From: an uncultured Alphaproteobacteria bacterium
GTDB taxonomy: Bacteria; Pseudomonadota; Alphaproteobacteria; RF32; CAG-239
NCBI GenBank assembly: GCA_949297145.1
Contig: CASFQO010000008.1
Span: 46,766 to 110,765, forward strand
DNA length: 64,000 bases
Reading direction: 5' to 3'
The notes under the pieces are model-generated. The model worked only from the letters and a program-made list of their open reading frames with translations. It was not told the DNA's origin and did not search any database. Below, piece by piece: positions 940 to 23,870 of this stretch (position 1 is the stretch's first letter; the number at the start of each line of letters is the position of its first letter). The position numbers were made by a program, and so were the translations under genes.

Positions 940-2298
940 ATGAAGAAAAAAACAGCAATCATCTGCCTAATAATAGGACTAGCAACAGGAAATGCAAATC
1001 CTGCCAATGCCTTAATTTTGGATGCTCCGACATTAGCTGCCAAAATCAGTGAGTGGGTAGGAAAAATAACCGATGCCACAACAAAAGTGACCCAGCAAGT
1101 ATCACAAGTAAAACAAATGACATCACAGGGCTTTAACAAAGAAGAACTCTTCAGCATAGCAGAAGAATACGCCTCAAGTTATGGAAAAGATTTACTCAAA
1201 ACCAAAATGAAAAAAATAGTGGATGGCACAAAAAAGAAAAACCGAGACAAGATGGAAACAGAAAAAGAAGCCTATGTAGAAGCTCAGAATGCTTACTATG
1301 AAGAAAAAATTGGGATAATGGATGATAGTATAAAAGAAACCGAGAATGCACGCAATGAAGCGCAAACCGCTCGTACACAAAAGCAAGCAGAGGTTGATCA
1401 AAAAAAAAGCTACTATGAAAGCGTCAAAGGAAATCTGTCGAAAGAACCAAAAGCATATGATGAGTATATGAAGGCACAGATGGAATATGACGAATTAGAT
1501 AAGACTTGCCAAGAATTTGATGTTCTGCTGGAAAATTTAGAAATGCAGAGAAGCGTATTGCAAGAAGAAAAAGCCAAAGTAGGGACTTCTGATGATCCTC
1601 AGTATGCATTATATGAAAAACGTCTGGAAGAAATGGATAAAGAAATAGAAGAGGCCGATGGAGAAGGAGGAAAAGAAGAAATTGTTAATAAATCAAGTGG
1701 TAATGAGGCTGAATGGGACGATGAAAACGTTGTGAAAGATTTCTCACCTACCGAGAAAGATTACACAGATTTTCTTGAGAGATATTTCTACAATCCAGAG
1801 GATTTGTCTGCAGCTGGAGGAGATGCGCGAATTGAACACCAAACAAAAATAGATGCTGTCACCAGAGAAAGAAGATTTTTGCTTGTAAACAGTGCGGCAC
1901 ACTTACTACAGGTATCAGCAACATTAAGAAGGGAGATTCCAGTACGTAGTGAAATTATAGATGAGATGTTTCAAAATACTCCTAAATCGACAGGAGAATT
2001 AGAGGCAATATCATCATATTCAGCCACAAGAATAGAAAATATGAAAGCATTGCTTATGTATGCGAAACTTCAAAGTGCAAGATTACAGTATATGTCTGCT
2101 AAACAATTGCTTAGCATAGACGCCATAAAAGTACCAAATGGAAATTATTCTGATTTTAATTTAGAAAAATACATCTTGACCAAAGAAGATGTGGATAAGG
2201 CAATAGAAGAAGCCAACACAGCAAACAGCGGTGTAACTTCTGTTGAAGATAATTATGAAGTAAATGCGGGAGACTACCAATGGTTAACAAACAACTAA
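940..2298 (+). CDS. Secreted coiled-coil protein (signal peptide MKKKTAIICLIIGLATGNANPANA), 452 aa; candidate VirB5/TrbJ-like component; contains an A9 homopolymer at 1400-1408
   Basis: Signal peptide; long E/K-rich heptad-like segments; 9-nt gap from previous gene; 19-nt overlap with next gene. Confidence 0.5.
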   Translation: MKKKTAIICLIIGLATGNANPANALILDAPTLAAKISEWVGKITDATTKVTQQVSQVKQMTSQGFNKEELFSIAEEYASSYGKDLLKTKMKKIVDGTKKKNRDKMETEKEAYVEAQNAYYEEKIGIMDDSIKETENARNEAQTARTQKQAEVDQKKSYYESVKGNLSKEPKAYDEYMKAQMEYDELDKTCQEFDVLLENLEMQRSVLQEEKAKVGTSDDPQYALYEKRLEEMDKEIEEADGEGGKEEIVNKSSGNEAEWDDENVVKDFSPTEKDYTDFLERYFYNPEDLSAAGGDARIEHQTKIDAVTRERRFLLVNSAAHLLQVSATLRREIPVRSEIIDEMFQNTPKSTGELEAISSYSATRIENMKALLMYAKLQSARLQYMSAKQLLSIDAIKVPNGNYSDFNLEKYILTKEDVDKAIEEANTANSGVTSVEDNYEVNAGDYQWLTNN

Positions 2299-7685: not shown

Positions 7686-7704
7686 AGAGGAAAAATAGCA
7701 AAGA

Positions 7705-8463
7705 ATGGTTAATTTAATAAATCAAAAAATACTTCGGATAACAGATAAAGGAAAACCCAAAGAAGCTCCGGCATTTATTACGGAAGATGTCATAGAAGTA
7801 AAACGTGCAAAATTGATTTATTACAAATGGATAAGTAGATTAATGGCGCTACTTGCAACCATCTCTTTGCTATATGGTGTTTGTGCAACATTATCAATAT
7901 TAAAGTTAGCGCCGGAAATAGTAATAGATCCGCAATTATTTGTACGCCTATCCGATTCTGAGTCTTTAGTCAAAAGGGAGAGAGTTGACCGTTGGATGGA
8001 GTCTCGTGAAAAGATGATGGTGAATTTCATGAAACAATATGTAGAGCTCCGAAACACCTACATCAAAGATGAAAAAGAAATGAATAACCGCTGGTTATGG
8101 GGAGGTCTTGTGTCATACCTATCAACCTATCCGGTATATAAAGAATTTGAAAAGGTCTTTCCTAAATTAAAAGAAGAAATGCAAGAAAAGGAAGCAAGTC
8201 GTTCTGTAGAAATTCTCTCAGTTGAGCGAACGGGCGGTGAAAACAGTAATACATGGAAAATAGAGTTTAAGACGTATGATTTTACTTTTAAGCAAAATAG
8301 ATTAAGCCGACGAGCAAGCGTGAAGCCGATTATAGAAGAGAGATTCTGGACTGCGAACATTCGTGGATATGTCGATCCAAACAGAAGAACGGCCTACAGA
8401 CGCCTTTTAAATCCATTAGGATTTGTCGTATACAGTTATTTTCAAAGTGAAATTGAGACTTAA
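7705..8463 (+). CDS. virB8: VirB8-like T4SS inner-membrane protein, paralog 1 (bitopic: N-terminal cytoplasmic tail, one TM, periplasmic NTF2-like domain)
   Basis: Single TM WISRLMALLATISLLYGVCATLSIL; size 252 aa; conserved C-terminal NPLGF-V-Y motif shared with the second copy. Confidence 0.7.
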   Translation: MVNLINQKILRITDKGKPKEAPAFITEDVIEVKRAKLIYYKWISRLMALLATISLLYGVCATLSILKLAPEIVIDPQLFVRLSDSESLVKRERVDRWMESREKMMVNFMKQYVELRNTYIKDEKEMNNRWLWGGLVSYLSTYPVYKEFEKVFPKLKEEMQEKEASRSVEILSVERTGGENSNTWKIEFKTYDFTFKQNRLSRRASVKPIIEERFWTANIRGYVDPNRRTAYRRLLNPLGFVVYSYFQSEIET

Positions 8464-8606
8464 AAATTTTTTAAGTATTGATAGAGTATAATACAGATAA
8501 AACAATTTAGCCTGTTGATAAGTCGCGCCAATTTGTTTTCTAGTTAGACTTTTAAAAATAAAAGTTTTAATTATAAATAGATGGAAAATTATTTAGAGGG
8601 TTAATC

Positions 8607-8798
8607 ATGTATTATAAAGCTTTAGTAATCGGTTTCGCTGTTCTAATATTGGCTGCATGTAATTTAGTCGGCAGCTATTATGAACCAGAACCTGTTGGTA
8701 TAGGTAAAGATGTATACGAATTGAAACTATCACCATGTGCTTGCATAGAGGTGGAATTACCAAAAACATTGCCGGATTGGTTCAAGGCAATCAGCTAA
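8607..8798 (+). CDS. virB7: Small (63 aa) lipoprotein, VirB7-like candidate, sandwiched between two virB8 paralogs
   Basis: Lipobox L-A-A-C at residues 15-18 (LILAACNL); AGAGGG RBS; size and position match rvhB7 of Rickettsiales. Confidence 0.5.
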   Translation: MYYKALVIGFAVLILAACNLVGSYYEPEPVGIGKDVYELKLSPCACIEVELPKTLPDWFKAIS

Positions 8799-8809
8799 GG
8801 TAAAAATCT

Positions 8810-9568
8810 ATGGTAGAGCAGCTATCCTCGGAAAATACAAAAAAACTTTTATTGGAAGGGCAAACTGGAGAAAAGCCTCGTCCTAAAATGGCGCGTCCTC
8901 ACAAAAGAGGTTCAGCGGATGTTATTGTCGAAAACGCAACAGAAAAAAGATATTTATGGACTGCCAGAGCTTTTGCTATTATCTTTGCGGTGAGCTTGTG
9001 TTGTAACTTAATCTTAACATACGTTGTATTTGCTATAATGCCACTCTATCGTATAGAGCCGTATTTGTTTAGTTTTGCAGAGAAAAAAGATCAAATCTAT
9101 ACAATCCATCCGGTTAAAAATATTTATGAGTATAAATACTTAACGGAAATCTTTATAAGAGAATATGTTTTATTACGTAATACCTTTGTTAACGACGTTA
9201 ATGAGATGGAACAACGTTGGGGGACAGGAAGCACTATTCAAGAAATGTCATCCCCAGGGGTTTATAGTAAATTTAAAGAGGAATTTGCTGATAAGGCAAT
9301 TGATTTAATTAGAAATCACAATATTACACGCAACATTAAAATCGCCTCAGTAACAGAAGTTGGTGGTAAAAATGGTGAAATGTGGTGGCAGGTAGAGTTT
9401 AGAGTTGAAGATATGATGCCCGAATTTGAAACACCGAGGTTAAGTGTGTGGTTGGCATCTGTCAAAATACAATATAGGGCCAAAAGGGTAACTTTTGGAG
9501 AAAGATTAAAAAATCCATTAGGGTTTACGGTACTTGATTATAAACAAGTAGAGAGAAAAACAAACTGA
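8810..9568 (+). CDS. virB8: VirB8-like T4SS inner-membrane protein, paralog 2
   Basis: TM AFAIIFAVSLCCNLILTYVVFAI; C-terminal motif RLKNPLGFTVLDY parallel to paralog 1. Confidence 0.7.
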   Translation: MVEQLSSENTKKLLLEGQTGEKPRPKMARPHKRGSADVIVENATEKRYLWTARAFAIIFAVSLCCNLILTYVVFAIMPLYRIEPYLFSFAEKKDQIYTIHPVKNIYEYKYLTEIFIREYVLLRNTFVNDVNEMEQRWGTGSTIQEMSSPGVYSKFKEEFADKAIDLIRNHNITRNIKIASVTEVGGKNGEMWWQVEFRVEDMMPEFETPRLSVWLASVKIQYRAKRVTFGERLKNPLGFTVLDYKQVERKTN

Positions 9569-9587
9569 TTGGGTGTAGGATAATTAG

Positions 9588-11546
9588 ATGATGAAAAAAG
9601 TGAACATATTATCTGTAATGTTGGTATATTTGGGGATGCTAATGGCATCAGCTCAAGCTCAAGTGACAAAAGATAATCTGGATCAAAATGCAGATCAGAG
9701 TCAAGGAAACTATGCCGCAACCAATTTAAATTATTTAGGAGGTGTAGGGTCCTTAGGTATGATGCAAAGTGCATGGAAAGATCCTTTACAGCATATGGGA
9801 GAAGGACAAACTCGTCCAGGTTATACAAAATATTATTGGACACCAGAACTTGTCTTGCCTGTCAGAGTTAGAGAAGGTATGTATACCCTAATAAATTTTC
9901 CAAACTGGGAAGTGATTGAAAATGTCTACATAGGTGATGGACAATCATTTAATGCGGAAATACAAGGTCCATCAAGTTTGATGGTTTATCCTGATTCTTC
10001 GCAGTTTGTTGGTGTAGATACTAATATGATTGTCTTTGGTCGTTCTGGAAATAAATATGTTTTTTATGTTCAAAGTGAAACAGTTAATACAGATAGAATT
10101 ACAAATGCTATAATAGATATTGAAGTTGTGAAAAAAAGACAAAATGTTTCTGGTGCGTCAGCTATGGGGATAGGCACCGGAGGCGGTAATGGGCATATCA
10201 ATGCAAATACTTATGGGCAGAATGGAAGTAGTGTAGATGCAACATTTACAAGAGATTTACAAAAGGAAGACTGGATTGAAAAAATTCCGGTAGACCCGAC
10301 ACAGTTTCGTTTTGATATAGAAGTATATGTTCCCAATCCCGATGACATTGTTATAGCTCCAGAACGTGTTTGGAGAGATAATATTTTCACGTATATTGAT
10401 TTAGGAGATAAAGCGCTGACAGCAAACCAACGACCGATTGTAACTTTAATCGTAGAACGTTCAGAAACACCCGTTGGTTTTAGAACAGCAGGCCCAAATA
10501 ATCGTCTCATTATTGTAGAAGGCATGGGAGATATGGTTTTGCGTAGCGGAAAAAGAATTGTTTGCTTAAAATTAAGGCGCGCAGATTCGGATGGTTTGGA
10601 AAATACAGTTTATGCGAAGACAAATGAGTGGGATTTACAAGCTCAGCGCTACCAAAATCAGTCTTCAAGTACAGGAGAACCTGCTGAAAATTATGAAGAT
10701 GTTTATGGAAAAGAAACATCAGCTGATAATAAAAAAGATTCTTTCTTTGGTATTAATTCATTCTTTGGACCATCAGAAACTGCAACATCCTCGAAAGCAG
10801 AAACAGACAGTGGTATGAGCTATGAAGATATGATCAGTGGAAAACAATCTACGACGCCGCAAAACGAGGTTAAGTCCGAACCAAAAGAAAATAACCAAAA
10901 CAAGGTATCAGAGCCGTCAACTACAGATAAAGAAGCTTTGATAAATTCGATTCCAAAAGCGAAAACATATGTGGCTACACCGAATTCGGCTCCAAGTACG
11001 CCAGAATTGACAGGCCAATATGATGTAAATGCAAATGGAGCAGAATTAGTAACGCCTCAGTATGGTAATAAAAAAGAGGATACCATAACATACCAAAAGG
11101 ATGAACAACAAAGCTTGCAAAATTCTAACGTTGCTCCAAAACTTGGTAATTCTAGCAATAACTCTAGTCCTGTTTTGATTACACCAAAGGATGAAAATTT
11201 GGCCAAACAGAACTCTTTGGTTTCTGCGGAAACAGAAGCTCTCTTGAAAGAATTCAGGGACGGAAAGGTTTTTGAAAATACAGATGAAAGTAATATTTCT
11301 ATAGAATTAGGAACAGATAAAGACGTAAATAATCTGGAAAAATTATGGAATGATATTTCTAAAAATTACTCAGCAACATTGGGTAGATATCAACCATTTT
11401 ATTCTGTAGATACACCGGCAGACGGTCAAGGAAAAGAGGTCTTTCACCTGCGAGTAGGACCTGTAAAATCTCTGGAAGAAGGAGATAATATTTGCAGCCA
11501 ATTAGGGCGTAATGGAATATTTTGTAGTGTGGTTAGAATACAATGA
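9588..11546 (+). CDS. virB9: VirB9-like T4SS outer-membrane core protein, extended by a ~250-aa S/T/N/Q-rich low-complexity linker and a C-terminal SPOR-like peptidoglycan-binding domain
   Basis: Signal peptide MMKKVNILSVMLVYLGMLMASAQA; VirB9/TrbG/CagX-like beta-rich core approx aa 75-330 (…RFDIEVYVPNPDDIVIAPERVW…IVCLKLR); C-terminus …FHLRVGPVKSLEEGDNICSQLGRNGIFCSVVRI matches the SPOR consensus. Confidence 0.75.
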   Translation: MMKKVNILSVMLVYLGMLMASAQAQVTKDNLDQNADQSQGNYAATNLNYLGGVGSLGMMQSAWKDPLQHMGEGQTRPGYTKYYWTPELVLPVRVREGMYTLINFPNWEVIENVYIGDGQSFNAEIQGPSSLMVYPDSSQFVGVDTNMIVFGRSGNKYVFYVQSETVNTDRITNAIIDIEVVKKRQNVSGASAMGIGTGGGNGHINANTYGQNGSSVDATFTRDLQKEDWIEKIPVDPTQFRFDIEVYVPNPDDIVIAPERVWRDNIFTYIDLGDKALTANQRPIVTLIVERSETPVGFRTAGPNNRLIIVEGMGDMVLRSGKRIVCLKLRRADSDGLENTVYAKTNEWDLQAQRYQNQSSSTGEPAENYEDVYGKETSADNKKDSFFGINSFFGPSETATSSKAETDSGMSYEDMISGKQSTTPQNEVKSEPKENNQNKVSEPSTTDKEALINSIPKAKTYVATPNSAPSTPELTGQYDVNANGAELVTPQYGNKKEDTITYQKDEQQSLQNSNVAPKLGNSSNNSSPVLITPKDENLAKQNSLVSAETEALLKEFRDGKVFENTDESNISIELGTDKDVNNLEKLWNDISKNYSATLGRYQPFYSVDTPADGQGKEVFHLRVGPVKSLEEGDNICSQLGRNGIFCSVVRIQ

Positions 11547-14500
11547 GCGAGAATACTCGGTTTGAAGAATATGAGAGAAAAACCCGTAAGATAATTTTCA
11601 TCATAGGAATTATCGCGTTCTTTTTCTTTCTGTTTGGACTATTAGTAATATCATCAGAGACTGAGGTCTACAATCCGGAAGAAGCTACCCCTGACTTTGT
11701 AGAAAATCAAAACATACTACCTGAAATAACAACAGATACAGGGCCTATATTTGTTGACACAGAAGCCACAACAGGAGAAAGTAAAAATAAACCCATAAAA
11801 GTTACACCTGCACAGATAAATATGAATAAATTTATTTTAGGTGTAGATACGCAAAACCAAAGTGTTCTAACAATTGGAACAGATGGTAGTGAAAGTATTC
11901 ATATAGAACGTGTTGAATTGGTGGAAGAAACTGAAGACGGATTTGAATTTCGTGATAAATGCAGAAACAGAGATTTGCGAGGAGATGAAACATGTAACGT
12001 CTTGATCACCTGGGTTCCACATCTTCCGGGTAACGTGCAGAATAATTTTAAAATAATATGGTACGAGACGCGCTTGGATAAATCAAGTGCAAAATCTGAA
12101 GAGGTGAGCATTAAAGGGAGTGCAGTTTATCCTGAGGACAACCAACAAAATTGTCCACCAGGAAGCGGTTGCGCAATTGGCGAAGGAGAAAGTACTGGTG
12201 CACATCGATTAGCAATAGGACCTAATGGAGAAATAATAGGATATATAGACGAAGCAGGAAATGTACACGATAATGAGGGAAATATTATCGGTCGTGTCAA
12301 TGAAGACGGATTGATTGTCGATTCTGACGGCAATATTATTGGTGTAGCCCAAAATATGAAGTTAGCTTATGATAAAGATGGTAATATAATCGGATATGTA
12401 AAAACGGACGGAACAGTTGTTGATCTGCAAGGTGAAGTAATCGGAAAAGCATTACCAGATGGTACGATTGTTAACAGCAAAGGAGAAATCATCGGCAAAG
12501 CTGTTGAAGCAGGATTTGTATATGATAAAAATGGCAAAATTATAGGTCGCGTGCTACCGGATGGAACAGTTGTCGATATAAATGACCCCAAGAAAATCAT
12601 CGGTCGACTAAATGAAAATGGTGAGGTTGTAGACGAAAACGGCAATGTAATAGGCAAAGTTACCTCAGCTGGGAACATCGTTGTAGATGAAAATGGTAAT
12701 GTATTAGGTGTTGTTATGCCAGATAATAGCGTTGTAGACCAAGATGGCAATATTGTTGGCTATGTTGACGAAAATGGCAATGTTTACAAACTTGCAAAGG
12801 AAAAAATCGGCACAAATGGAGAAAGTCGGAAAATCGTGTATGACAAAGATGGTAAAGCCATCGGTTATATCGATGAAAATGGCAAAGTTGTTAAATTTGC
12901 AAAAGATAGCAATAAACCGGAAATAATTGGAAAAGTTGGGGCTAGCCGCCGGTTAGCCTATGATAAGAATGGCAATGTAATCGGCTATGTAGATAAAGAT
13001 GGTACAGTAAAGGATTTTAAGGGAAATACAATAGGCAAAGTCGATAAAGACGGAAATATAATAGATAAAAACGGCAATAAGATAGGCAAGGCCGGGGCTT
13101 TTGGTAAGTTGGCATTGGATAAAAACGGAAAAGTCATAGGGTATATTGATGACCAAGGCCGCGTATTTGACCATAATGGAAAGCATATCGGCAATGTCGA
13201 TAAAAATGGTAACATTGTAAAATTAGCTGAAAATGGCAATAAAGGGGAAGTAATAGGAAAATCTGGAGAAAGTCGCAGATTGGCCTTTGATAAAAATGGT
13301 AACGTTATCGGATACGTAGATAAAGATGGCACGGTAAAAGATTTTAAGGGAAACACAATAGGCAAAGTCGATAAAGATGGAAATATAATAGATAAAAACG
13401 GTAATAAGATAGGAAAAGTGAGCTCATATGGTAGATTAGCACTAGATGAAAATGGAAAAGTCATAGGGTATATTGATGACCAAGGCCGTGTATTTGACCA
13501 TAACGGGAAACAGATCGGTAACGTTGATAAAGATGGAAATATAATAGATAAAAATGGTAATAAAATTGGGAAATCAGGAGAAAGTCGAGAGTTGGCTTAT
13601 GATAAGAATGGCAATGTAATCGGCTATGTAGATAAAGATGGTACAGTAAAAGATTTTAAGGGAAATACAATAGGCAAAGTCGATAAAGACGGAAATATAA
13701 TAGATAAAAACGGCAATAAGATAGGCAAGGCTGGGGCTTTTGGTAAGTTGGCATTGGATAAAAACGGAAAAGTCATAGGGTATATTGATGACCAAGGCCG
13801 CGTATTTGACCATAATGGAAAGCATATCGGCAATGTCGATAAAAATGGTAATATCATTAGCACGCAACAGAAGAATGTAGCTGGAGAAAAAAAGAGGATA
13901 GCCTTAGGGAAAGACGGTAAGCCAATAGGGTATATAGATGATGATGGAAATGTTATAGATTTTGATGGAAATATCATAGGAAAGGTTAATGACAAAGGGG
14001 AAATTATAGGCAAGAATGGGCAAAAAATTGGTACTGCAGGAAATTATGAAACAGTTGCATATGATAAAAATGGCAAAGTAATAGGTTTCGTCGATGATAA
14101 AGGTCGTGTTGTTGGTAAAAATGGCAAATTACTTGGTTATGTTGACGACAAAGGGCAAATTATAGGGACAACAGGCGAGATAATTGGTAAAGTAGGAACA
14201 TCAAGAGAAATAGCCTATGATAACAATGGAAAATTTATCGGCTATGTAGACCAAGATGGCTCTGTGAAAGGCTGTGGTGGAGCAGTAATTGGTAAAAAAG
14301 ATAGTTCTGGAAATGTTATAGATAAAAATGGTAAAATTATCGGCAAAGTAGGTGGAATAAAAGAGTTAGCCTTTAATAATGAAGGAATTTTTATTGGCTA
14401 TATAGATGAAAAAAAACGAGTCATAGATTGTGAAGGCACAGCAATAGGTGTTGTGGATAAAAATGGTAATATTATAGCATCAAGTGGAGAAACGTTAGGA

Positions 14501-17500
14501 ACCGCAGGAACGTTTAAGCGCTTAGCCTATGATAAAAATGGAAAAGTCATTGGTTACGTAACGCCAGATGGTACAGTAAAAGATTTTAAGGGTAACTTGA
14601 TTGGACGTATGACTGAAGATGGAACGATTCTTGATAAAAATGGTCGTGTGATTGGTAAAGCTGGAGATTACAAACAGGTAGCGACAGACAAAAATGGTAA
14701 TGTTATCGGCTATGTGGATGAAAATGGTCGTGTTATAGATGAAAATGGCAAACTGATAGGCTTTATAGACAATGAAGGTAATGTCATTAAAGCAGGAACA
14801 AAGGTAATAGGTAGAACTTGTATTAAAAGAAAAATTATAAAAAACAAAAAGGGAAATATAATCGGATATCTGGATAAAAATAACATTGTAAAAAATTTTA
14901 GCAATAAAGTGCTTGGCACAAATAAAAATGGAGACATTCTAGATAATAAGGAATTGCTAATAGGTACGGTAAGCGAACTCCAAAATGTTGTACAAAAGGA
15001 AGCTGGAAATATCATAGGGTATTTAGATGCAAAAAACTATGTTAGAGGCGATGAAAATAAAATAATAGGAATTGTAGATGTAAAGGGAGACGTTTTAGCT
15101 GCAAAAGAAAATATAATTGGAAAATTAGACACAGATAGAAAAACCCTGAAAGACAATGGTAATAATATTATAGGCTACATGAAAGAGAATAATTTTGCTT
15201 TCAGTACTGATAATAAGCTAATGGGCTATGTAACGGAAGATAATGAAGTGAAAGCCGTTGGAGAAGTGATCTGTACTGCATGCAAAAGTGTCAAGTTGGC
15301 ATATGATGAAAATGGTAATATATTAGGATATATCGATGAAAATGGCAATGTAATAGATGAAAATGGTAAGATTGTCGGCAAGGTAGATGAAAACGGCAAT
15401 GTGATAAATGAAAACGGAAAAATTATCGGAAAAGTCGGAGATGCCCAAAATTTGGCCTATGATAAAGATGGAAAACTTATAGGATTCGTAGATAAGGACG
15501 GAAAAGTAAAAGATTTTAAGGGAAATGTAATAGGATATGTCGATGAAAATGGAAATATTCTTGAGAATACGAATGAAATAATAGGCAGTGTTGGAAAAAA
15601 TGGTAAATTAGCCTATGATAAAAATGGAAAAGTCATTGGTTACGTCGATAAAGATGGTAATGTCCGTGACTTTAAAGGCAATTTAATCGGAAAAGCTACA
15701 AAAGATGGTAAAATAATAGATCAGTATGGCCGTGAAATAGGAAAAGTTGGTGATACTAAAACATTAGCACTGGATAAAAATGGAAATGTAATAGGCTATG
15801 TCGGTGAAGATGGAAAGGTCTACGGTGAAAAAGGAGATTTGATAGGATTTCTGGATAATGACGGTAATGTTGTTGGTTTAACCGATGAAGTACTAGGCAA
15901 AGCCTCTACAAATCGTCAATTAGCACTTGATAAAAATGGAAATGTAATAGGATACATAGATGAAGACGGTACTGTTCGTGATTTTGAAGGAAAGCTGCTA
16001 GGGTATTTAGGCGAAGATGGAAGTATAAACGATATAAATGGCAATATTATTGGAAAAGCGGGCGATTATGCAAAAGTTGTTCTCGATAAGAATGGTAACA
16101 TAATAGGTTACACAGATGAACAAGGAAAAGTAATTGGAAATAATGGAAAAGTCATTGGTTTTGTAGGAGAAGATGGCAATGTTTATGGAAGCAGTGGTGA
16201 AGTTATTGGCCGACTAGCCGAAAAAGGGGAGGGAGATCTCAAGGTAATCAGTAGAAAATCAGTAATGGATGAAAAAGGTAATATAATTGGTTACATAGAT
16301 GAGAATGGTCTGGCTCGAGATTTTGATGGCAACATTCTGGGAACTCTTCAAGAAGATGGAAGCATTAAAGATAGCAAAGGAAATATAATAGGTCGAGCAG
16401 GAGATAATATTGATTTAACAGTAGATGGAAACGGAAAAATTGTTGGTCGAGTAGGTGATTATTCAAATTTAGCAATTGATGATGAAGGGAACGTTATTGG
16501 TTATATTGGTAACGATGGAAAAGTTTATGATGCAAATGGAATTGTCATTGGCTATATAGATGAAAACGGTAATGTCATTAGTACTAGGGGAATAAGAATT
16601 GGAACAGTTGTTAAAAAGGATATGATAGCTATATCACCAGCAGGATACAGTCTGGGGATTATTAACAATCGAGGTGAAGTTACTAACAATAAAGAGGAAG
16701 TTATCGGCAAAATATTACCAAATTCATTAATAAAAGCAACTGAAGGCGATCAAATAATCGGTAAAACAGTTATCGGAGGAATGGCTATAGGCTGGGGCTG
16801 CCAACATTACGGATATGTAGACAGAGATGCAAGAGTGAAAAAAAATGGAAAAGACACCGGATATAAAATGCTATTTGACAGAACAATTGTAGACAAAGAT
16901 GGCAATTATGTTGGAGATATAGCAAAAGTTGGAGCTGTGCGCGATGAAAAGTGTAACATTATTGGAAAAGCTGAATATGACGGTTATGTAAGAAACGATG
17001 CCGGAGATTATGTCGGTTGTGTAAACCCAGATGGAGGTGTGCTTGATCAAGATGGAAAACTTATAGGAAAGGTCTTTGAACCAGGATATGCACTATATTA
17101 TAGCGGAGAAATGATGGGAATAGTCAATCAAAATGGTTCAATAACATCCGGAACACAAGCTATTGGATGTACGAATTTTGATGGAGAAGTATTAAATAAA
17201 GATGGATTTGTCATTGGACAGGTAATGGATAAAACTCAAGCGTTTGATATTGAAGGGAATTTTATTGATAACCTATCAACATTTAAGTATGATAATACGG
17301 AAATCTTGCCTAATACGAAGATATTATTTAATAAATTCATAGTTAATCCGAAATTGGAAATAAAAGGAATTATATTGCCAGAGAGAAATGTTGTCATAAA
17401 TTCGGATGGAGACGTTATAGGACATCTGTTTGCAGATGGGTATATTTATAATCAAAAGGGAATTGCTGTTGATAAAATAGCATATGAAGGAAGAGCTTTT

Positions 17501-18463
17501 TATTCCCAAAAAGCTGGAAAGATTATGGAGCCTGGAAAAGTAGTTGACTTTAACGGTAACTATATAGGATTGGCAAATGCATCAGGTAAAGTAATAGACG
17601 TACTGGGTACAGAATTAGGCCATATAGATGGAAAAGGACGAATGTTTGATAAAGCAGGAGAATATAAAGGAGGACTGGTTAAAACAGGTGTTGGCATAGG
17701 TTATGATGGATCATATCTCGGATATGTAAGTAAAAGCGGCAAAGTTATAGATGTTGACGGAAATGTGAGTGGAAACGTCAGCTCTGAGGGACATATTTTA
17801 GATGCGAATAAACAAATTGTCGGAGAAGTTATAGCAGAAGACCTGACAATAGATATTCAGGGTAAAGTAAGAGGATATGTAAATGCTTTGGGCGATATTA
17901 TAGATGAAGATGGCAACATCATAACAACTATATTGCCAGGAGGCGCATCAAACAAAAATTATAATGTAATAAAAAGAGGGGTTGTGCTAACTTATTCAGG
18001 AAATGTTTTAGGACAAGTTGTTGCTGATGGAACAGTAATTTCGACAAACAATACTAAGATTGGTCACATATTAAATTCAGGACAAGCTGTTAATGATAAG
18101 GGGGTATTAATAGGAGAAATTGCAGAAGGCGACATCGTAATTGATGAAAAAGATCAAGTTGTAGGCTTCATAAATGCAGAAGGAAAAGTACTGGATAAAA
18201 ATAAGACGGTAATAGGAAAAACCATATCCTCAAATTTAATTGTAGATAACAATGGAAAAATATTGGGATATAGTTATAAAATAGGTGCTAATATACTAGG
18301 AAATGACGGAAAGTTTTTGGGAAGGCTGTCCTCAGATGGGACGATATTCAGCCTGACAAATGGAAAAATTGGATATTTAAAGAGCAACGGCTCATATGTA
18401 AATATTCGAAATCAAGTTTCCGGATATGTATTAGATGAAGTAGCGCAAAACCGGAGGAACTGA
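11543..18463 (+). CDS. Giant (2306 aa) membrane-anchored repeat protein. It has an N-terminal VirB10-like topology (short cytoplasmic tail, one TM, then a periplasmic region). The rest of the protein is an array of >200 copies of a ~10-residue D-x-(D/N)-G-x-(V/I)-I-G-x-V module (about 20-aa double units).
   Basis: TM IIFIIGIIAFFFFLFGLLVISS at aa 17-38; ATGA overlap with virB9 stop; repeat array from about nt 12218 to the end; near-identical DNA-level tandem repeats. Confidence 0.8.
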   Translation: MSENTRFEEYERKTRKIIFIIGIIAFFFFLFGLLVISSETEVYNPEEATPDFVENQNILPEITTDTGPIFVDTEATTGESKNKPIKVTPAQINMNKFILGVDTQNQSVLTIGTDGSESIHIERVELVEETEDGFEFRDKCRNRDLRGDETCNVLITWVPHLPGNVQNNFKIIWYETRLDKSSAKSEEVSIKGSAVYPEDNQQNCPPGSGCAIGEGESTGAHRLAIGPNGEIIGYIDEAGNVHDNEGNIIGRVNEDGLIVDSDGNIIGVAQNMKLAYDKDGNIIGYVKTDGTVVDLQGEVIGKALPDGTIVNSKGEIIGKAVEAGFVYDKNGKIIGRVLPDGTVVDINDPKKIIGRLNENGEVVDENGNVIGKVTSAGNIVVDENGNVLGVVMPDNSVVDQDGNIVGYVDENGNVYKLAKEKIGTNGESRKIVYDKDGKAIGYIDENGKVVKFAKDSNKPEIIGKVGASRRLAYDKNGNVIGYVDKDGTVKDFKGNTIGKVDKDGNIIDKNGNKIGKAGAFGKLALDKNGKVIGYIDDQGRVFDHNGKHIGNVDKNGNIVKLAENGNKGEVIGKSGESRRLAFDKNGNVIGYVDKDGTVKDFKGNTIGKVDKDGNIIDKNGNKIGKVSSYGRLALDENGKVIGYIDDQGRVFDHNGKQIGNVDKDGNIIDKNGNKIGKSGESRELAYDKNGNVIGYVDKDGTVKDFKGNTIGKVDKDGNIIDKNGNKIGKAGAFGKLALDKNGKVIGYIDDQGRVFDHNGKHIGNVDKNGNIISTQQKNVAGEKKRIALGKDGKPIGYIDDDGNVIDFDGNIIGKVNDKGEIIGKNGQKIGTAGNYETVAYDKNGKVIGFVDDKGRVVGKNGKLLGYVDDKGQIIGTTGEIIGKVGTSREIAYDNNGKFIGYVDQDGSVKGCGGAVIGKKDSSGNVIDKNGKIIGKVGGIKELAFNNEGIFIGYIDEKKRVIDCEGTAIGVVDKNGNIIASSGETLGTAGTFKRLAYDKNGKVIGYVTPDGTVKDFKGNLIGRMTEDGTILDKNGRVIGKAGDYKQVATDKNGNVIGYVDENGRVIDENGKLIGFIDNEGNVIKAGTKVIGRTCIKRKIIKNKKGNIIGYLDKNNIVKNFSNKVLGTNKNGDILDNKELLIGTVSELQNVVQKEAGNIIGYLDAKNYVRGDENKIIGIVDVKGDVLAAKENIIGKLDTDRKTLKDNGNNIIGYMKENNFAFSTDNKLMGYVTEDNEVKAVGEVICTACKSVKLAYDENGNILGYIDENGNVIDENGKIVGKVDENGNVINENGKIIGKVGDAQNLAYDKDGKLIGFVDKDGKVKDFKGNVIGYVDENGNILENTNEIIGSVGKNGKLAYDKNGKVIGYVDKDGNVRDFKGNLIGKATKDGKIIDQYGREIGKVGDTKTLALDKNGNVIGYVGEDGKVYGEKGDLIGFLDNDGNVVGLTDEVLGKASTNRQLALDKNGNVIGYIDEDGTVRDFEGKLLGYLGEDGSINDINGNIIGKAGDYAKVVLDKNGNIIGYTDEQGKVIGNNGKVIGFVGEDGNVYGSSGEVIGRLAEKGEGDLKVISRKSVMDEKGNIIGYIDENGLARDFDGNILGTLQEDGSIKDSKGNIIGRAGDNIDLTVDGNGKIVGRVGDYSNLAIDDEGNVIGYIGNDGKVYDANGIVIGYIDENGNVISTRGIRIGTVVKKDMIAISPAGYSLGIINNRGEVTNNKEEVIGKILPNSLIKATEGDQIIGKTVIGGMAIGWGCQHYGYVDRDARVKKNGKDTGYKMLFDRTIVDKDGNYVGDIAKVGAVRDEKCNIIGKAEYDGYVRNDAGDYVGCVNPDGGVLDQDGKLIGKVFEPGYALYYSGEMMGIVNQNGSITSGTQAIGCTNFDGEVLNKDGFVIGQVMDKTQAFDIEGNFIDNLSTFKYDNTEILPNTKILFNKFIVNPKLEIKGIILPERNVVINSDGDVIGHLFADGYIYNQKGIAVDKIAYEGRAFYSQKAGKIMEPGKVVDFNGNYIGLANASGKVIDVLGTELGHIDGKGRMFDKAGEYKGGLVKTGVGIGYDGSYLGYVSKSGKVIDVDGNVSGNVSSEGHILDANKQIVGEVIAEDLTIDIQGKVRGYVNALGDIIDEDGNIITTILPGGASNKNYNVIKRGVVLTYSGNVLGQVVADGTVISTNNTKIGHILNSGQAVNDKGVLIGEIAEGDIVIDEKDQVVGFINAEGKVLDKNKTVIGKTISSNLIVDNNGKILGYSYKIGANILGNDGKFLGRLSSDGTIFSLTNGKIGYLKSNGSYVNIRNQVSGYVLDEVAQNRRN

Positions 18464-18464
18464 G

Positions 18465-21400
18465 TTGCGAAAAAAAATATTAAATTTTATCCATATTCTT
18501 GAACTGGTGGTAGTCTGTATTGCCTTCAGTGTGAAGGCTATGGCTGCAGATATTAGTGCACTCAATTTTAATGGAGATTTAATAGGAAAAGTAATTCCTG
18601 ACGGTTCCGTAATAAATAGTGATAATGAGCTTATTGGGTATATGACTGCAGATGGGTTTATTTTTGATAATGATAATAATTTAATTGGAGGCATTGTACC
18701 GCAGGGTATAGCTATTTCATACAACAATAATATTTTAGGAAAAATCAACAATGATGGATCAGTTACGTCGCTAAACGATAGTCTAATTGGAAAGGTCTTA
18801 CCAAATGGCTTAGTCGTTAATGATAATTATGATATTTTAGGAGCCGCCGTTTCACCAAATTTAGTGTATAATGATGGTGGACAAGTTGTTGGACGAGTAT
18901 CAGGCGATGGTAAGTTTTATAATTTATCTGGAGAAAATACCGGATTTGTAACTGCAACAGGATTCGTCTATTCATCTAATGATAACGGAACAGAAAAAAA
19001 AATTAGCCTTATAGGAAAATTAATTACATCAAAGATGGTAATATCGTCAGGTGGAAAATATTTAGGCAGCATAGCTCCGGATGGAAAAGTACTAGATTTA
19101 AGGAAAAATATCATAGGGAATATTCATGCCAATGGTTTTGTATATAACAAAGAAGGGCAGGCAATAGGTCATGTTGTTGATAACGGGTATGCGTTTAATA
19201 ACAACGGACAATACATAGGGGTCGTAAGCTATAACGGTGAGGTTATAAATAAAGGAACAGTAGTTGCCCATGCCATAAATGGTAACAGAGTCATAAATAA
19301 AGAAGGAAATACAATTGGCTTTACAGTCAATATGGCTGCTACAGCAAATACATTAGATGGCAAGTATCTGGGGCGTATTACGGCAGAAGGAAAAATACTT
19401 GATAAAAGAAATATTATAGGAAGCATAGGTGCCTCTGGAAAAGTAGTTAATGAACAAGGTGCTGTTATCGGTATGGTCAATCCGGTAGGTCCTGTATTTG
19501 ATTATTTAGGAAATTTACGAGCAAATGCCGCCATAGGAGGTAAAATTGTTTCATTAGAAGGAATAGAACAGGGAACAGTTCGTCAAAATGAAGCAATAGA
19601 TAATAATGGAAACATTATTGGTAAAACGATAGATAATAATTTATGCTTTAACAGTAATAATGAATTTTTAGGAATAAGCGGTATAGGAACGTATCTAAAG
19701 GCAAATGGGCAGACATATAAAATCTCGCCTTACGGGTATGTCTTTAATGAAAATGGAGAATTAAGCGGTATCAATATTAAGCAAGGTGGTGTATACACAG
19801 AAGATGGAGCAACACTATCATATACATCAAATGAAGGAAAAACCGAAAATACTTCATTAAATGAAATAGCTAAATTTACAGGAGCCGGAATTTTTCTTGA
19901 TAAAAATAATAAGCTATTAGGAAAGATGATAGAAAACAAGTATATCACGAATTTTGAAGGCGAAATGCAAGGTGTCATCAATGCAGGCAATTTGGTTGTA
20001 AATAATAAAAATAAGATTTTTGCAAAAATATTACCAAATAATAATGTTGTTGGCATATCAGAGCGTATTGCCCAAAATTATGGAAGAGCCGGAACTGCAC
20101 CGATTAGCATAAGTATAAATGGGGATTACCTTGGTGCAAACAGTGTGACAGGGCAAATAACAAAAGGCTCCGAAATTGTAGGGAAAATAAGCTCAGATGG
20201 TTACGCTATAGATAATATGGGGGCATTATACGGAAAAACATTAAATATGGGAGCCGTAATCTCGCCAGAATGTAAAGTACTAGGAGTAGTCTCAGATAAG
20301 GGCGAAGCAAGAACATCTAAAGGAGCATATCTGGGGATGATACTAGCCAATAGGCAAGTTGTAGATGAGACAGAAAATGTGATAGGCTATGTTGTTGAAT
20401 CCCAACCGATAAACGGTAAAAATGGAGAAAGTATCGGTGTGGCTAATACATCTGGTAATGTTCTCAATTATAATAATCAAAATTTGGGATGTTTAGACAA
20501 TACCGGTAAAGTAAAAAATTCTCAGCAAGAAATAATTGGACAGGTGATTCCGTATATGTCTATTATGGGATATGACAATAAAATTATCGGATATACGAAT
20601 TTTTATGGAAATGTCATAGATAATTCGGGAATACAAATAGCAACTATAGATTTAGATGAAAGCGTATTATCTAAAACAGGAGAAAATATTGGTGTTCCGT
20701 TTCAATATACAGTAGCTTTTGATGCAAATAACATTTATTTAGGGCGAGTTAAGCCTGATGGAAATGTTGTGTCAGATGGTGGAGAAATTTTAGGTACAGT
20801 CTTATACACAGGAGAAGTAAAAACAACAAAAGGCGAAAATGGTTATGCCCTATATGATTTATATGTTTATGATAATGATGGAAAGACAATAGGCTATATA
20901 GCCAAGAATGGCCGCGTTTACAGTATTATGGGTGAATTAAAAGGTGCTATCTCCCAAGGATTTGTCTTAGATAAAAAACAAAATTTAATAGGTAGAGGAT
21001 TGAGAGATTATAATATAAGAAACAAAGATAATCAAATTATTGGATATTTGAAATTAGATGGAAGCGTTGTTGATATTAAGAATATTGAGATCGGAAAAAT
21101 TGATGAAAAAGGAAATGTCATAACCCTCTCGGGTCAAAACATTGCACAGGCTGGAAAGTTGCAATATTATCACCGTCCAGCTGAACCAATGACAGAAGAA
21201 AAGGTTTCGCAACAAGATACAAAAGAAACTAAACAGAATGAAAATATCGATACAATAAGAGATACAAAAAATACAGAAGAAGCAGAAGAAACAGAAGAAA
21301 TAGAAGAAGCAGAAAATCTAGAGGGTACAAAACGAGAACCCCAGGAAGATGTTGAAGCTTTATCTCCGGAGGAAGCCGCAGCAGCGGAAGTCAAAGACAA

Positions 21401-22820
21401 ATATCGAGTTATAGGCATTGCTGTAACACCAGGTGGACGCTATATTGGAGATGTATACAGCAATAATCAAGTAATAGATGAATCAGGAACTGTTATAGGT
21501 AGCACAAATGCTAATGGTGAGATTTTAGATAAGGAAGGTAACAAAGTAGGGACTTTTGAAAAAAACAAAGAAACCTCCAATCAAGGAATAAAAACAAAAT
21601 GGTGGGAACAAGTCGCGACCGGAGAAACAATTAGCCCCTACAGTAGCGGCAATGAAATAACTAATGTTGGCCCTGGAGGCGGTATTGGCCCTGGAGGAAG
21701 ATATAATCCAAGGCGTGCAGCAATATTATCCCAATTGCAAGATGAAAGACGGAGAACCATGGTCGCCGCGAAAATTGAGCCGGGATACGATGCTGCATCC
21801 TATACAGGTTGGCAAGATGACTGGGGAATTAATCGTTCCGTATCGACATTAAGGGTTAATATGGATAATATGATTACGGGAGATAAACCAATTCCGGCTG
21901 TTTTAGCAAGGTCCTTAATATCTCTTGGTTCTGCTCCGGTAACAGCAATTGTTGAAAGAAATATATATGGTGATTCAGGGCGTAACGTTATTATTCCTGC
22001 CGGTAGCAGAATTATAGGAGGTTTACAAACAACAGACGCAGAATCAAGATTTGACAGTACGAGTGGCGGTGTCAAATTAGAAATATCATGGGAAAGAATT
22101 ATACGTCCGGATGGAATAGCATTCTTGCTATCGGCTGGGAGGACACAAACAGGTGATGCACAAGGTCGCGGTGGTGGTGCGTTAGGTTATGTGGATGAGC
22201 AATTAGTAAAAAAATACACATTGCCGATTGTTGGTACAATGGTAACATCAGCCATAACATACATGATGGCAGTGGATGAAGAAAGCACGGGAGAAGTAGA
22301 AACCTCTAAACAGCAAGCTGCATCAGATGCACGTCAACAATTTATGGAAAAGATGGATGAAATTTTGCAAGAAATTATAGATAGTAAATCACAGATAGAG
22401 CCTGTTACCTATGTTCCGGCTGGCACAAGGGTTATCATTTATCCAATGCAAGATTTGTGGCTAAGAAGTACAAAAGATATTCAAAAAGGAATAATAACGA
22501 ATGTTCCAGGTGGCGGAGAAGGCGGACTTGTAAATGAAACGTTCTACGATGGAGGTGGAACAACCAGCACATCAACAGTTCAGAGTAACAACTCAAAGAA
22601 TAGCCAAAAGGTGATTTTGGGCAATCAGGCACAAACAAATAACACCAATAATAATGGTGGTGGCGGTACACCTCTTATGGAAGATACTTCTCAAAACAAC
22701 ACGCAGCAGCAACCTCATAGAAACATAGGAGCAATACCACCTCCAGCAGCTGATGGAACCATAACAGAAGCTCCAGAAAGCGAAGAGGATTTATCTGGAG
22801 AGGTGGAATTAATATACTAA
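18465..22820 (+). CDS. virB10: Giant (1451 aa) VirB10/TrbI-family protein: Sec signal peptide, ~870 aa of the same D-x-D/N-G hairpin repeats, an acidic E-rich linker, a VirB10 C-terminal beta-barrel domain (approx nt 21735-22575), and a G/N/T/Q-rich tail
   Basis: TTG start 6 nt after a GGAGGA RBS; h-region ILNFIHILELVVVCIAFSV with VKA-MAA cleavage motif; C-terminal …IPAGSRIIGGLQ…ISWERIIRPDGIAF…ALGYVDEQL…VPAGTRVIIYP… matches VirB10/TrbI CTD. Confidence 0.8.
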   Translation: MRKKILNFIHILELVVVCIAFSVKAMAADISALNFNGDLIGKVIPDGSVINSDNELIGYMTADGFIFDNDNNLIGGIVPQGIAISYNNNILGKINNDGSVTSLNDSLIGKVLPNGLVVNDNYDILGAAVSPNLVYNDGGQVVGRVSGDGKFYNLSGENTGFVTATGFVYSSNDNGTEKKISLIGKLITSKMVISSGGKYLGSIAPDGKVLDLRKNIIGNIHANGFVYNKEGQAIGHVVDNGYAFNNNGQYIGVVSYNGEVINKGTVVAHAINGNRVINKEGNTIGFTVNMAATANTLDGKYLGRITAEGKILDKRNIIGSIGASGKVVNEQGAVIGMVNPVGPVFDYLGNLRANAAIGGKIVSLEGIEQGTVRQNEAIDNNGNIIGKTIDNNLCFNSNNEFLGISGIGTYLKANGQTYKISPYGYVFNENGELSGINIKQGGVYTEDGATLSYTSNEGKTENTSLNEIAKFTGAGIFLDKNNKLLGKMIENKYITNFEGEMQGVINAGNLVVNNKNKIFAKILPNNNVVGISERIAQNYGRAGTAPISISINGDYLGANSVTGQITKGSEIVGKISSDGYAIDNMGALYGKTLNMGAVISPECKVLGVVSDKGEARTSKGAYLGMILANRQVVDETENVIGYVVESQPINGKNGESIGVANTSGNVLNYNNQNLGCLDNTGKVKNSQQEIIGQVIPYMSIMGYDNKIIGYTNFYGNVIDNSGIQIATIDLDESVLSKTGENIGVPFQYTVAFDANNIYLGRVKPDGNVVSDGGEILGTVLYTGEVKTTKGENGYALYDLYVYDNDGKTIGYIAKNGRVYSIMGELKGAISQGFVLDKKQNLIGRGLRDYNIRNKDNQIIGYLKLDGSVVDIKNIEIGKIDEKGNVITLSGQNIAQAGKLQYYHRPAEPMTEEKVSQQDTKETKQNENIDTIRDTKNTEEAEETEEIEEAENLEGTKREPQEDVEALSPEEAAAAEVKDKYRVIGIAVTPGGRYIGDVYSNNQVIDESGTVIGSTNANGEILDKEGNKVGTFEKNKETSNQGIKTKWWEQVATGETISPYSSGNEITNVGPGGGIGPGGRYNPRRAAILSQLQDERRRTMVAAKIEPGYDAASYTGWQDDWGINRSVSTLRVNMDNMITGDKPIPAVLARSLISLGSAPVTAIVERNIYGDSGRNVIIPAGSRIIGGLQTTDAESRFDSTSGGVKLEISWERIIRPDGIAFLLSAGRTQTGDAQGRGGGALGYVDEQLVKKYTLPIVGTMVTSAITYMMAVDEESTGEVETSKQQAASDARQQFMEKMDEILQEIIDSKSQIEPVTYVPAGTRVIIYPMQDLWLRSTKDIQKGIITNVPGGGEGGLVNETFYDGGGTTSTSTVQSNNSKNSQKVILGNQAQTNNTNNNGGGGTPLMEDTSQNNTQQQPHRNIGAIPPPAADGTITEAPESEEDLSGEVELIY

Positions 22821-22889: not shown

Positions 22890-23870
22890 ATGGGAAAGCT
22901 TGAGGATGAAGTTCTTTGCTCTGTATTAAGACCATTATCATATTGGTATGATCAGGAGAATATAGAAGAAGTCGCTATAAATCATCCTGGCGATATATGG
23001 CTGCGCTTGCGCGGCAAAAGAGCCTTTCCATGGGTGAACTATAAGGATCCTAAATTAACCAGAGAATATTTGACAAATTTACTGCATATAATAGCAAATT
23101 TAAATGATCAAGAGTTTGATCCGATAAATGGTTCACCGGTTGTTTACGCCAGAATTCCTGGAGGACATCGTTTTACAGGTATCGCCGGAAAAAATATTGA
23201 GTATGATTTAGATGATGCCGCGACTGGAGGAATAGCGATAGCGATACGTTTGCATTCGGATGATGTAGCATTTGGCTTTGGAGATTATGGCTTGGAGCAG
23301 GGGAAAAAATTAAAAGAGATTAATCCCTTAAAGCATATCAAAGATCCTGATGATGCGTATGAAAGGTTGCTGCTGGCATTACGCCGTGGAGACCATATCC
23401 TAGTGAGTGGTGGTACAGGAACTGGTAAAACGACATTATTAAACAACTTGCTAAAACTTCTGGATATACATAAAAGAGTAATAACGGTGGAGGATACGCG
23501 AGAACTTAATGTGCCGCAACCAAATCATGTACATATTGTTTTATCGCGTACAGAGCAGACGAATACGATGGATTATTCCAAAGTAATTGACTTGATTGTA
23601 CGTTTTACTCCAGATGCAATCATCGGCGGAGAAATTTCTACAAGTAATGCGGGAGCAATTTGGGAATTGATGGGATCAGGACACGATAACTGCCTAGCCA
23701 CAATACACGCAGAGAGCTCGACCGCCGCCTATGAAGCATTTGTAAAACGTATTATGAGAACACAGCCGAACATAGATGTTGAAAAAACGATAGAAGAGAT
23801 GCGTCGCAAACTTCACGTTGTGCAAATCGTAAGAGACGGCAATATTCGTGGAATTACAGAAATAACTTAA
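22890..23870 (+). CDS. virB11: VirB11 T4SS traffic ATPase
   Basis: Walker A VSGGTGTGKTT; 326 aa; VirB11/CpaF-like N- and C-terminal domains. Confidence 0.88.
   Translation: MGKLEDEVLCSVLRPLSYWYDQENIEEVAINHPGDIWLRLRGKRAFPWVNYKDPKLTREYLTNLLHIIANLNDQEFDPINGSPVVYARIPGGHRFTGIAGKNIEYDLDDAATGGIAIAIRLHSDDVAFGFGDYGLEQGKKLKEINPLKHIKDPDDAYERLLLALRRGDHILVSGGTGTGKTTLLNNLLKLLDIHKRVITVEDTRELNVPQPNHVHIVLSRTEQTNTMDYSKVIDLIVRFTPDAIIGGEISTSNAGAIWELMGSGHDNCLATIHAESSTAAYEAFVKRIMRTQPNIDVEKTIEEMRRKLHVVQIVRDGNIRGITEIT

Follow-up and report, generated by a model that had tools for sequence, protein, structure and literature searches.

A giant beta-flower repeat protein as the probable N-terminal half of a divided VirB10 in a type IV secretion system of gut Alphaproteobacteria

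The 64,000-nucleotide (nt) window analysed here, the whole of the stretch taken from contig CASFQO010000008.1 of an uncultured Alphaproteobacteria bacterium (RF32; CAG-239), holds a type IV secretion system (T4SS) operon in which a giant open reading frame (ORF) of 2306 amino acids (aa) lies between virB9 and virB10. The giant probably represents the N-terminal half, anchored in the inner membrane, of a VirB10 that beta-flower repeats have expanded and that is now divided between two genes. In its canonical form VirB10 is a single chain connecting the ATPase platform at the inner membrane with the outer-membrane pore, and is usually regarded as a continuous relay of the ATPase state to the outer-membrane gate; the assignment of the giant to one half of such a chain is based on sister lineages in which the homologous parts are held in one protein in the same slot of the operon. 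The features of the giant and of the VirB10 gene behind it are as follows.

11543..18463 (+): giant ORF, uninterrupted from its ATG, the proposed N-terminal half of a split, enlarged VirB10 ("VirB10-N"), from ORF and translation, synteny and N-terminal homology
11543..11590 (+): conserved cytoplasmic tail, aa 1-16 (M..T.FEEYE.KT..), with columns at least 90% conserved in 27 giants
11591..11653 (+): single transmembrane (TM) helix, aa 17-37, by Kyte-Doolittle hydropathy and within the helix modelled by AlphaFold2 (AF2) at aa 3-37
11654..11851 (+): acidic, poorly conserved linker, aa 38-103, most columns variable and predicted local distance difference test (pLDDT) scores mostly <50 over aa 53-103
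11852..12127 (+): ASH / HYDIN-VesB-CFA65-type Ig-like beta-sandwich, aa ~104-195
12215..18439 (+): beta-flower array, aa ~225-2299, ~41 units of ~52 aa or ~20 suggested modules of ~104 aa, from Pfam, a self-derived hidden Markov model (HMM) and AF2
12953..13591 (+): recent in-frame duplication of 213 aa (639 nt), aa 471-683, the sole indel relative to the closest orthologue
18416..18460 (+): conserved C-terminal tail (..V.GY.L.EVAQNRRN-COOH), at least 90% conserved in 27 giants
18465..22820 (+): VirB10 proper ("VirB10-C"), 1451 aa, with signal peptide, 22 beta-flower units, acidic linker, TrbI barrel domain and low-complexity tail, from Pfam and the unit HMM
18465..18545 (+): predicted Sec signal peptide of VirB10, aa 1-27 (..SVKAMA/ADIS, the slash marking the cleavage site), from sequence features and conservation
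21873..22463 (+): TrbI/VirB10 C-terminal barrel domain, aa 1137-1333, Pfam PF03743, profile positions 2-188 of 188

The giant, VirB10 and their single-chain counterparts

A profile of giant aa 1-222 was searched against 1.84 billion cluster representatives. Beyond the orthologues within the clade, the profile aligns colinearly to aa ~10-200 of at least ten further proteins, 1498-2350 aa long (library-wide E values 6e-12 to 3e-4), and each of these ten has a similar tail (..SSEQY.KK.NR), a TM helix, an Ig-like domain, 18-32 repeat units and a C-terminal TrbI domain. One of them, P0153 (2350 aa), is found on two independent contigs (L046, L047) in the order virB8, small ORF, virB8, virB9, fused VirB10, virB11; its chromosome has 47% GC, and the VirB9 and VirB11 encoded there are 51% and 62% identical to those of the window. 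The fused VirB10 sits alone between virB9 and virB11, the slot that is held by two genes in the window, and its two ends are homologous to the N-terminus of the giant and to the C-terminus of VirB10. The window thus shares with single-chain giant VirB10s (e.g. P0153 of L046) the tail, TM helix, ASH-like domain, repeat units, TrbI domain and virB9-virB11 slot, and departs from them in having two genes, a stop codon, a new signal peptide and conserved junction motifs. An initial annotation of the window, made from the sequence alone, had given the giant a VirB10-like N-terminal anchor, and the case for this is stronger than was proposed, in that tail, TM helix and Ig-like domain are all homologous to the N-termini of the single-chain proteins.

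The ATG of the giant overlaps the virB9 stop codon as ATGA, and this coupling, together with the synteny, is kept in more than 30 species. Only 1 nt separates the stop codon of the giant from virB10, whose TTG start codon has GGAGG ahead of it. A single hydrophobic segment is present in the giant, at aa 17-37 (Kyte-Doolittle peak 3.18), in agreement with the one N-terminal TM helix first proposed, and the basic residues before it suggest an N-in orientation by the positive-inside rule. AF2 modelling of aa 1-234 yields a helix at aa 3-37, a low-confidence acidic linker and a seven-strand sandwich at aa 106-194 (pLDDT ~70-80), linker and Ig-like domain together (aa 38-225) having an isoelectric point (pI) of 4.5. 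The parts best conserved across orthologues are the cytoplasmic tail, the Ig domain and the C-terminal EVAQNRRN tail. Only 7 residues follow the repeat array and there is no further domain, as expected from the earlier statement that a C-terminal catalytic or toxin domain is missing; TrbI (PF03743) has no Pfam match in the giant and is located on the next gene. An exact-sequence look-up found the giant not on record, and a scan for promoters and terminators returned counts at the level of shuffled sequence and was uninformative.

VirB10 proper matches Pfam TrbI (E 1.9e-27) and Bflower_2 (E 5.5e-52), with NCBIfam VirB10 and ComB10 matches that fall below cut-off. The repeat of the giant had also been noticed inside the N-terminal half of VirB10, where 22 units at aa 33-893 and 987-1029 fill the N-terminal two thirds of the protein. 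A very acidic linker lies between the array and the barrel (21165-21420, aa ~900-985; pI 4.6 over aa 900-1130), and the TrbI domain is followed by a low-complexity C-terminal extension rich in N, Q, G and T that ends ..SGEVELIY (22464-22820, aa ~1334-1451). Alignment of 28 VirB10 N-termini, those of 27 related loci and of the window, displays a basic n-region and then a short hydrophobic core often broken by E or K, with small residues at -3/-1 in nearly all of them (AMA/AD, AVA/AD, AKA/AD, VYA/AD); the sequences are variable before the cleavage site and nearly invariant after it (ADISALNFNGDLIGKVIPDG). The giant by contrast has 21 uninterrupted hydrophobic residues and no such cleavage site. 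From these features it may be inferred that a cleavable Sec signal peptide takes the place, in this clade, of the TM anchor with which canonical VirB10 begins.

In a distant split lineage (L040-L042) the N-half, of only 1100-1310 aa, ends ..GEVAKNRRN-stop, and the C-half begins with a signal peptide followed by QEITAINFNGEPVGKVIPDG. Because these loci keep the junction motifs, the split junction is old and conserved, with array lengths that differ. An outgroup T4SS (L044), which has VirD4 nearby and no giant, encodes an ordinary 556-aa VirB10 (P0076; L044 10001-11671) with an N-terminal TM anchor directly after virB9. Since ordinary VirB10 is one chain with an N-terminal anchor, the single-chain giant is most simply the older state. 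The N-terminus of the giant has no significant match to P0076 by BLASTP, by the clade HMM or by a broader HMM; two short motifs in the N-terminal region of P0076 (ITPEQIQ.. and ..LKSGQRCQITLT) are colinear with the Ig-like domain of the giant, at scores that are not significant. It may be that an ASH-like domain behind the TM anchor predates the beta-flower expansion.

The repeat array

The repeat that fills the giant had been taken to be novel. It matches three catalogued families, Pfam Bflower_2 (PF21785) with E 2.8e-163 and 533.2 bits over 27 stretches (gathering cut-off 38), Bflower (PF21784) with E 7.6e-99 and 326.6 bits (cut-off 25) and DUF3659 (PF12396) with E 3.9e-76 and 251.3 bits (cut-off 24.8), and relatives are already named "DUF3659 domain-containing protein" or "5-fold beta-flower protein" by NCBI. 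The beta-flower fold was described by Durairaj et al. (Nature 2023; PMC10584680) as a shallow barrel made of 8, 10 or 12 short antiparallel strands, the hairpins of which form "petals" tipped by a semi-conserved [DNEQ]xxG motif, with no PDB relative and neither an assigned function nor a machine context; the three Pfam families (clan CL0395) were created for it (PMC10584680). Short antiparallel hairpins, [DNEQ]xxG tips, an all-beta prediction and the lack of a similar solved structure are common to these families and the repeat of the window. The described members are mostly single ~100-aa domains, some of them lipoproteins and many enclosing a C-terminal helix (PMC10584680), unlike the ~20 + ~11 tandem modules without helices that appear in two T4SS proteins of the window, where the hairpin measures 17 aa and indels come in 104-aa steps, equal to 12 strands.

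Identity autocorrelation of the giant repeat peaks at lags of 52, 17 and 104 aa: 17 aa is one hairpin (7+10), 52 aa is three hairpins, and 104 aa is the next period. These replace the periods of ~10, ~20 and ~108 aa in the initial annotation. A 327-nt (109-aa) period of 3 copies is reported by Tandem Repeats Finder at 12870-13851 and belongs only to a recent triplication, of which the duplication blocks A1 and A3 are 97.4% identical in nucleotide sequence, the longest exact repeat being 119 nt. Seeded with a single 52-aa unit, an HMM identifies 41 significant copies in the giant, where two more of its 43 domain hits are not significant, as well as 22 copies in VirB10, and detects the unit in no other six-frame segment of the window. 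The unit has the consensus YDKNGNVIGYVDEDGKVIDNNGEVIGKVDADGNVLDKNGNIIG plus a ~9-residue linker and comprises three 17-aa hairpins, with G at 68-100% in the turn positions. The more than 200 copies claimed for the motif D-x-(D/N)-G-x-(V/I)-I-G shrink to 22 in its strict form (0.01 in shuffles) and 56 in a relaxed form of the 8 residues (1.8 in shuffles), while G-x-[VILMF]-[VILM]-G occurs 66 times versus 3.9 in shuffles and the hairpin-tip motif [DNEQ]xxG 193 times versus 93 +/- 7; a figure above 200 is reached only if every strand is counted, which gives ~240 strand-plus-turn modules (~120 hairpins).

AF2 modelling of four units predicts an all-beta structure with six strands per unit (mean pLDDT 79.7), and the PDB contains no fold similar to the modelled units. 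The C-terminal hydrophobic helix of many beta-flower members is not predicted in the four-unit model, and there is no hydrophobic window in the giant beyond the TM helix. Since orthologue lengths differ mostly in ~104-aa steps, it is suggested that two units (12 strands) form one structural module, in which case the giant would have ~20 modules and VirB10 ~11. Calcium binding, part of the calcium-stabilized beta-roll or hairpin stack that had been considered plausible, is unsupported: RTX GGxGxD, DxDxDG and TSP3-like patterns each occur zero times in the giant, at or below shuffle expectation, and the D-x-[DN]-G loops once likened to EF-hand and RTX loops are the turn at the beta-flower hairpin tip (PMC10584680). 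With a catalogued repeat and no support for a calcium roll, the protein is less exotic than was proposed, but it is now more sharply defined.

GC skew over the repeat array (12001-18000) is 0.37-0.43 as against ~0.12-0.2 in neighbouring genes, most simply explained by the codon composition of a repeat rich in G, D, N and K. Cumulative GC skew flattens after ~24 kb, and dnaA lies at 31219-32679 (-).

Conservation, proposed assembly and alternative readings

A scan of species-representative genomes with VirB9 gave 32 related loci, all of them in metagenome-assembled genomes (MAGs) whose source is uncultured Alphaproteobacteria of the human, mouse or ruminant gut, under labels that vary among Alphaproteobacteria, Rickettsiales, Rhodospirillales and Acetobacter. 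The order virB9-giant-virB10 is found in every one of these loci that reaches far enough, and the placement between virB9 and virB10 is a layout kept in more than 30 species-level MAGs. The view that the giant is a T4SS component, argued earlier from this placement among other points, and not a toxin or free adhesin, is supported. All 27 full-length giants that were compared (26 orthologues and that of the window) are intact, with 1990-3151 aa and 35-57 units; their lengths differ between species mostly in steps of ~104 aa, the module number ranging from ~17 to 28, with ~10 in the L040-type lineage, and 10 of the 27 species share a length of ~2091-2093 aa.

The closest orthologue (L003) is 90.6% identical to the giant, and the only indel between them is the 213-aa insertion at aa 471-683. 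In this comparison the giant has a ratio of nonsynonymous to synonymous substitution rates (dN/dS) of 0.035, virB9 one of 0.073 and virB10 one of 0.05. Identity in the most distant locus falls to 64% for the giant and 67% for VirB9, and to 38% for the 1801-aa secreted protein encoded upstream. The giant is under strong purifying selection, and such constraint marks a core structural part rather than a variable antigen. The mean identity between paralogous units is 37%, far less than the at least 64% of orthologous giants, so that the units are individually constrained and have not been homogenised.

Short-read assemblies break within these repeat genes, as seen in the scaffold gaps at ~9830-9970 of L040, L041 and L042 and in many of the P-numbered protein matches. 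Many public records of these genes consist of fragments with no annotation beyond "partial VirB10" or short DUF3659 protein; their true architecture is thereby concealed, which is of practical consequence to users of the databases. "Short" beta-flower VirB10 proteins (P0031, P0042, P0047, P0063) were considered as intermediates and rejected; their gene calls are cut by scaffold gaps or contig ends, and their loci are split as usual.

In the assembly proposed for the divided VirB10, the giant would be bitopic in the inner membrane and oriented N-in, with its tail available to the VirB4/VirB11 platform and its array projecting into the periplasm (a periplasmic part of 242 kDa, pI 5.2). VirB10-C would be exported by Sec, with its TrbI barrel inserted together with VirB9 in the outer-membrane core and its own array hanging into the periplasm. 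Contact between the two arrays would be made, probably close to the strongly conserved junction segments formed by the EVAQNRRN tail of the giant and the mature VirB10 N-terminus ADISALNFNG; this association would rebuild the inner-to-outer-membrane link non-covalently and would surround the channel with a very large periplasmic scaffold. That VirB10 works as two polypeptides whose halves are joined only by beta-flower array contacts is a tentative idea, possible but rather doubtful as it stands. If it were true and the usual 14-fold core symmetry applied, each machine would contain hundreds of beta-flower domains, a new kind of periplasmic lattice, and the beta-flower fold would acquire its first role, that of a self-associating building block of a secretion machine.

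A number of points weigh against this reading of the giant and VirB10. The module number is variable, unlike that of a fixed-length strut; the contact of the two arrays in trans is purely conjectured; the signal peptide of VirB10 is called from sequence features and conservation; and the three-dimensional packing of the modelled array could be that of closed flowers or of a continuous meander. The order of units in the giant shows no colinearity with that in VirB10 (Spearman -0.23, p 0.31), and the repeats are too diverged from those of the fused proteins (~30% identity, not colinear) to map a fission point. The split could have originated by gene fission, or by tandem duplication followed by reciprocal loss. 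Duplication fits in that the split pair has ~62 units in total, roughly twice the 18-32 of the fused forms; with junction motifs absent from the fused forms, unit order not colinear and repeats so diverged, both origins stand as candidates.

The main rival, which the variation in length would suit, takes the giant for an adhesin or host-contact array that the T4SS displays at the cell surface, its chain passing through or beside the outer-membrane core in the manner of the repeat region of Helicobacter pylori CagY and its module number changing by recombination so as to tune binding or evade immunity. In addition to the ~104-aa steps between 1990 and 3151 aa and the recent in-frame duplication of 213 aa, this reading can draw on the gut and rumen habitat of the hosts, on an array of ~20 extended modules that would probably exceed the width of the periplasm, and on the precedents for variable repeat regions in CagY and in Legionella DotG (PMC6761968, PMC9371333). 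CagY is a ~1900-aa VirB10 homologue of an expanded core complex, with tandem repeats N-terminal to TrbI whose number changes by in-frame recombination (PMC9371333, PMC6761968), and the 22 units before TrbI in VirB10 and the stepwise length variation and 639-nt duplication of the giant are traits of the same type. However, the repeats of CagY are alpha-helical, carried on a single chain, surface-exposed as reported and fast varying (PMC9371333, PMC6761968), whereas those of the window are predicted beta hairpins in a split protein under strong purifying selection. DotG (IcmE) resembles the window as a VirB10 homologue with variable-number repeats between TM anchor and TrbI, and interacts with DotF, a second bitopic inner-membrane partner (PMC6761968); it differs in its pentapeptide repeats, in a DotF that is not homologous to the VirB10 N-terminus, and in belonging to a type IVB system. 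What makes surface display unlikely is that the conserved N-terminal TM anchor, which has no cleavage motif, fixes one end of the giant in the inner membrane, that its dN/dS is 0.035 and its units are kept position by position at the rate of VirB9, that the truly fast-evolving protein of the operon is the 1801-aa secreted one, and that a length of ~2091-2093 aa recurs in 10 of 27 species.

There is a small chance that the giant serves the envelope in general, for example as a spacer that binds peptidoglycan or glycan, and is encoded in the operon yet independent of the channel, since some beta-flower proteins are annotated "cell wall-binding" (PMC10584680) and the SPOR-like domain on VirB9 suggests that cell-wall contacts matter in this machine. 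Against such independence, the position and translational coupling of the gene are invariant in more than 30 species, VirB10 is the only other protein of the window with the repeat, and the N-terminal module is physically part of VirB10 in the sister lineages. An Rhs/YD-repeat or RTX-like toxin, or a calcium-binding beta-roll protein, is scarcely credible. The giant has in common with Rhs/YD-repeat proteins its beta-hairpin repeats, a Y-D..G flavour and summed weak matches (RHS_repeat, Pfam E 2.7e-20; TIGR01643 YD_repeat_2x, 83.6 bits), to which may be added a weak match to the Rhs structure 7q97 (E 0.003) and a relative labelled "YD repeat-containing protein" by JGI; yet no single stretch passes alone with RHS_repeat or TIGR01643, and the beta-flower models score 4 to 7 times above the YD models on an array with a regular 17/52-aa period. 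Furthermore the Rhs core motif (DPxG[LWIV], P....DP.G) has no match in the giant, which also differs from Rhs proteins in having no cocoon-sized irregular repeat set, no PAAR, plug or C-terminal toxin domain, and in its inner-membrane anchor and T4SS operon; the zero counts of RTX, DxDxDG and TSP3 patterns speak against the calcium-binding variants.

The beta-flower fold and repeat-enlarged VirB10 homologues such as CagY and DotG are already known. In the searchable literature there is no description of beta-flower arrays as T4SS building material, of a VirB10 whose anchor and barrel lie on separate halves, of the single-chain beta-flower VirB10 (which exists as database sequences), or of this gut alphaproteobacterial T4SS as a whole. 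The same literature gave nothing for RF32 with type IV secretion or secretion system and nothing related for DUF3659, and for beta-flower no title on type IV secretion among the matches listed. With the fold placed inside a defined molecular machine its function becomes testable, and the occurrence of VirB10 as one chain in some lineages and two in others is a natural experiment, whose comparison could test the need for covalent continuity in the transmission of energy or signals. The system is chromosomal and conserved across many uncultured gut Alphaproteobacteria of human, mouse and ruminant; it has many unrecognised secreted components, and so probably has a role in the gut habitat.

Operon and neighbourhood

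The genes that surround the giant and VirB10 in the operon are the following.

232-930, 940-2298 and 2280-7685 (+): three consecutive signal-peptide proteins of 232, 452 and 1801 aa, no family match
7705-8463 (+): virB8, Pfam VirB8
8607-8798 (+): 63-aa lipoprotein ORF with lipobox LAAC (..VLILAAC), from translation, no Pfam match
8810-9568 (+): second virB8, Pfam VirB8
9588..11546 (+): virB9, with CagX domain at aa 80-327, long low-complexity linker and SPOR-like domain at aa 578-650, from Pfam
22890..23870 (+): virB11 ATPase, Pfam T2SSE E 1.8e-26

The gene order is thus the 232-, 452- and 1801-aa proteins, virB8, lipoprotein, virB8, virB9, giant, virB10 and virB11, after which ordinary chromosomal genes follow (yihA, yidC, dnaA, mfd, recG, ptsI, dnaX). 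The three signal-peptide proteins upstream of virB8, which contain much coiled coil and cysteine, may be pilus-tip proteins, adhesins or substrates. The arrangement of virB8, small ORF and virB8 recurs in L001, L035, L040 and L046, and the position of the 63-aa lipoprotein ORF between the virB8 paralogues is kept in all related loci; by position it is probably the VirB7 equivalent. VirB9 (CagX E 4.2e-14) is unusual in its linker of ~250 aa and its C-terminal SPOR-like, peptidoglycan-binding type of domain, which scores at the borderline (21.2 bits, cut-off 21). This tail is also conserved on VirB9 of the fused-VirB10 lineage L046, and suggests that the machine may be tied to peptidoglycan as well.

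The upstream part of the operon was read from L035, a contig that encodes an identical 232-aa protein, where three VirB2/TrbC-like genes, a 96-aa ORF, VirB4 (806 aa) and two unassigned proteins (386 and 727 aa) occupy 2367-10001. VirB6/TrbL, VirB5, VirB1 and VirD4 were not recognised by Pfam in the operon or in the window. The set contained in the L035 operon comprises three VirB2-like genes, VirB4, two VirB8, VirB9, VirB10 and VirB11. Further along the window, two tandem 260-aa lipoprotein-like paralogues that are 90% identical lie at 41492-42274 and 42348-43130 (+).

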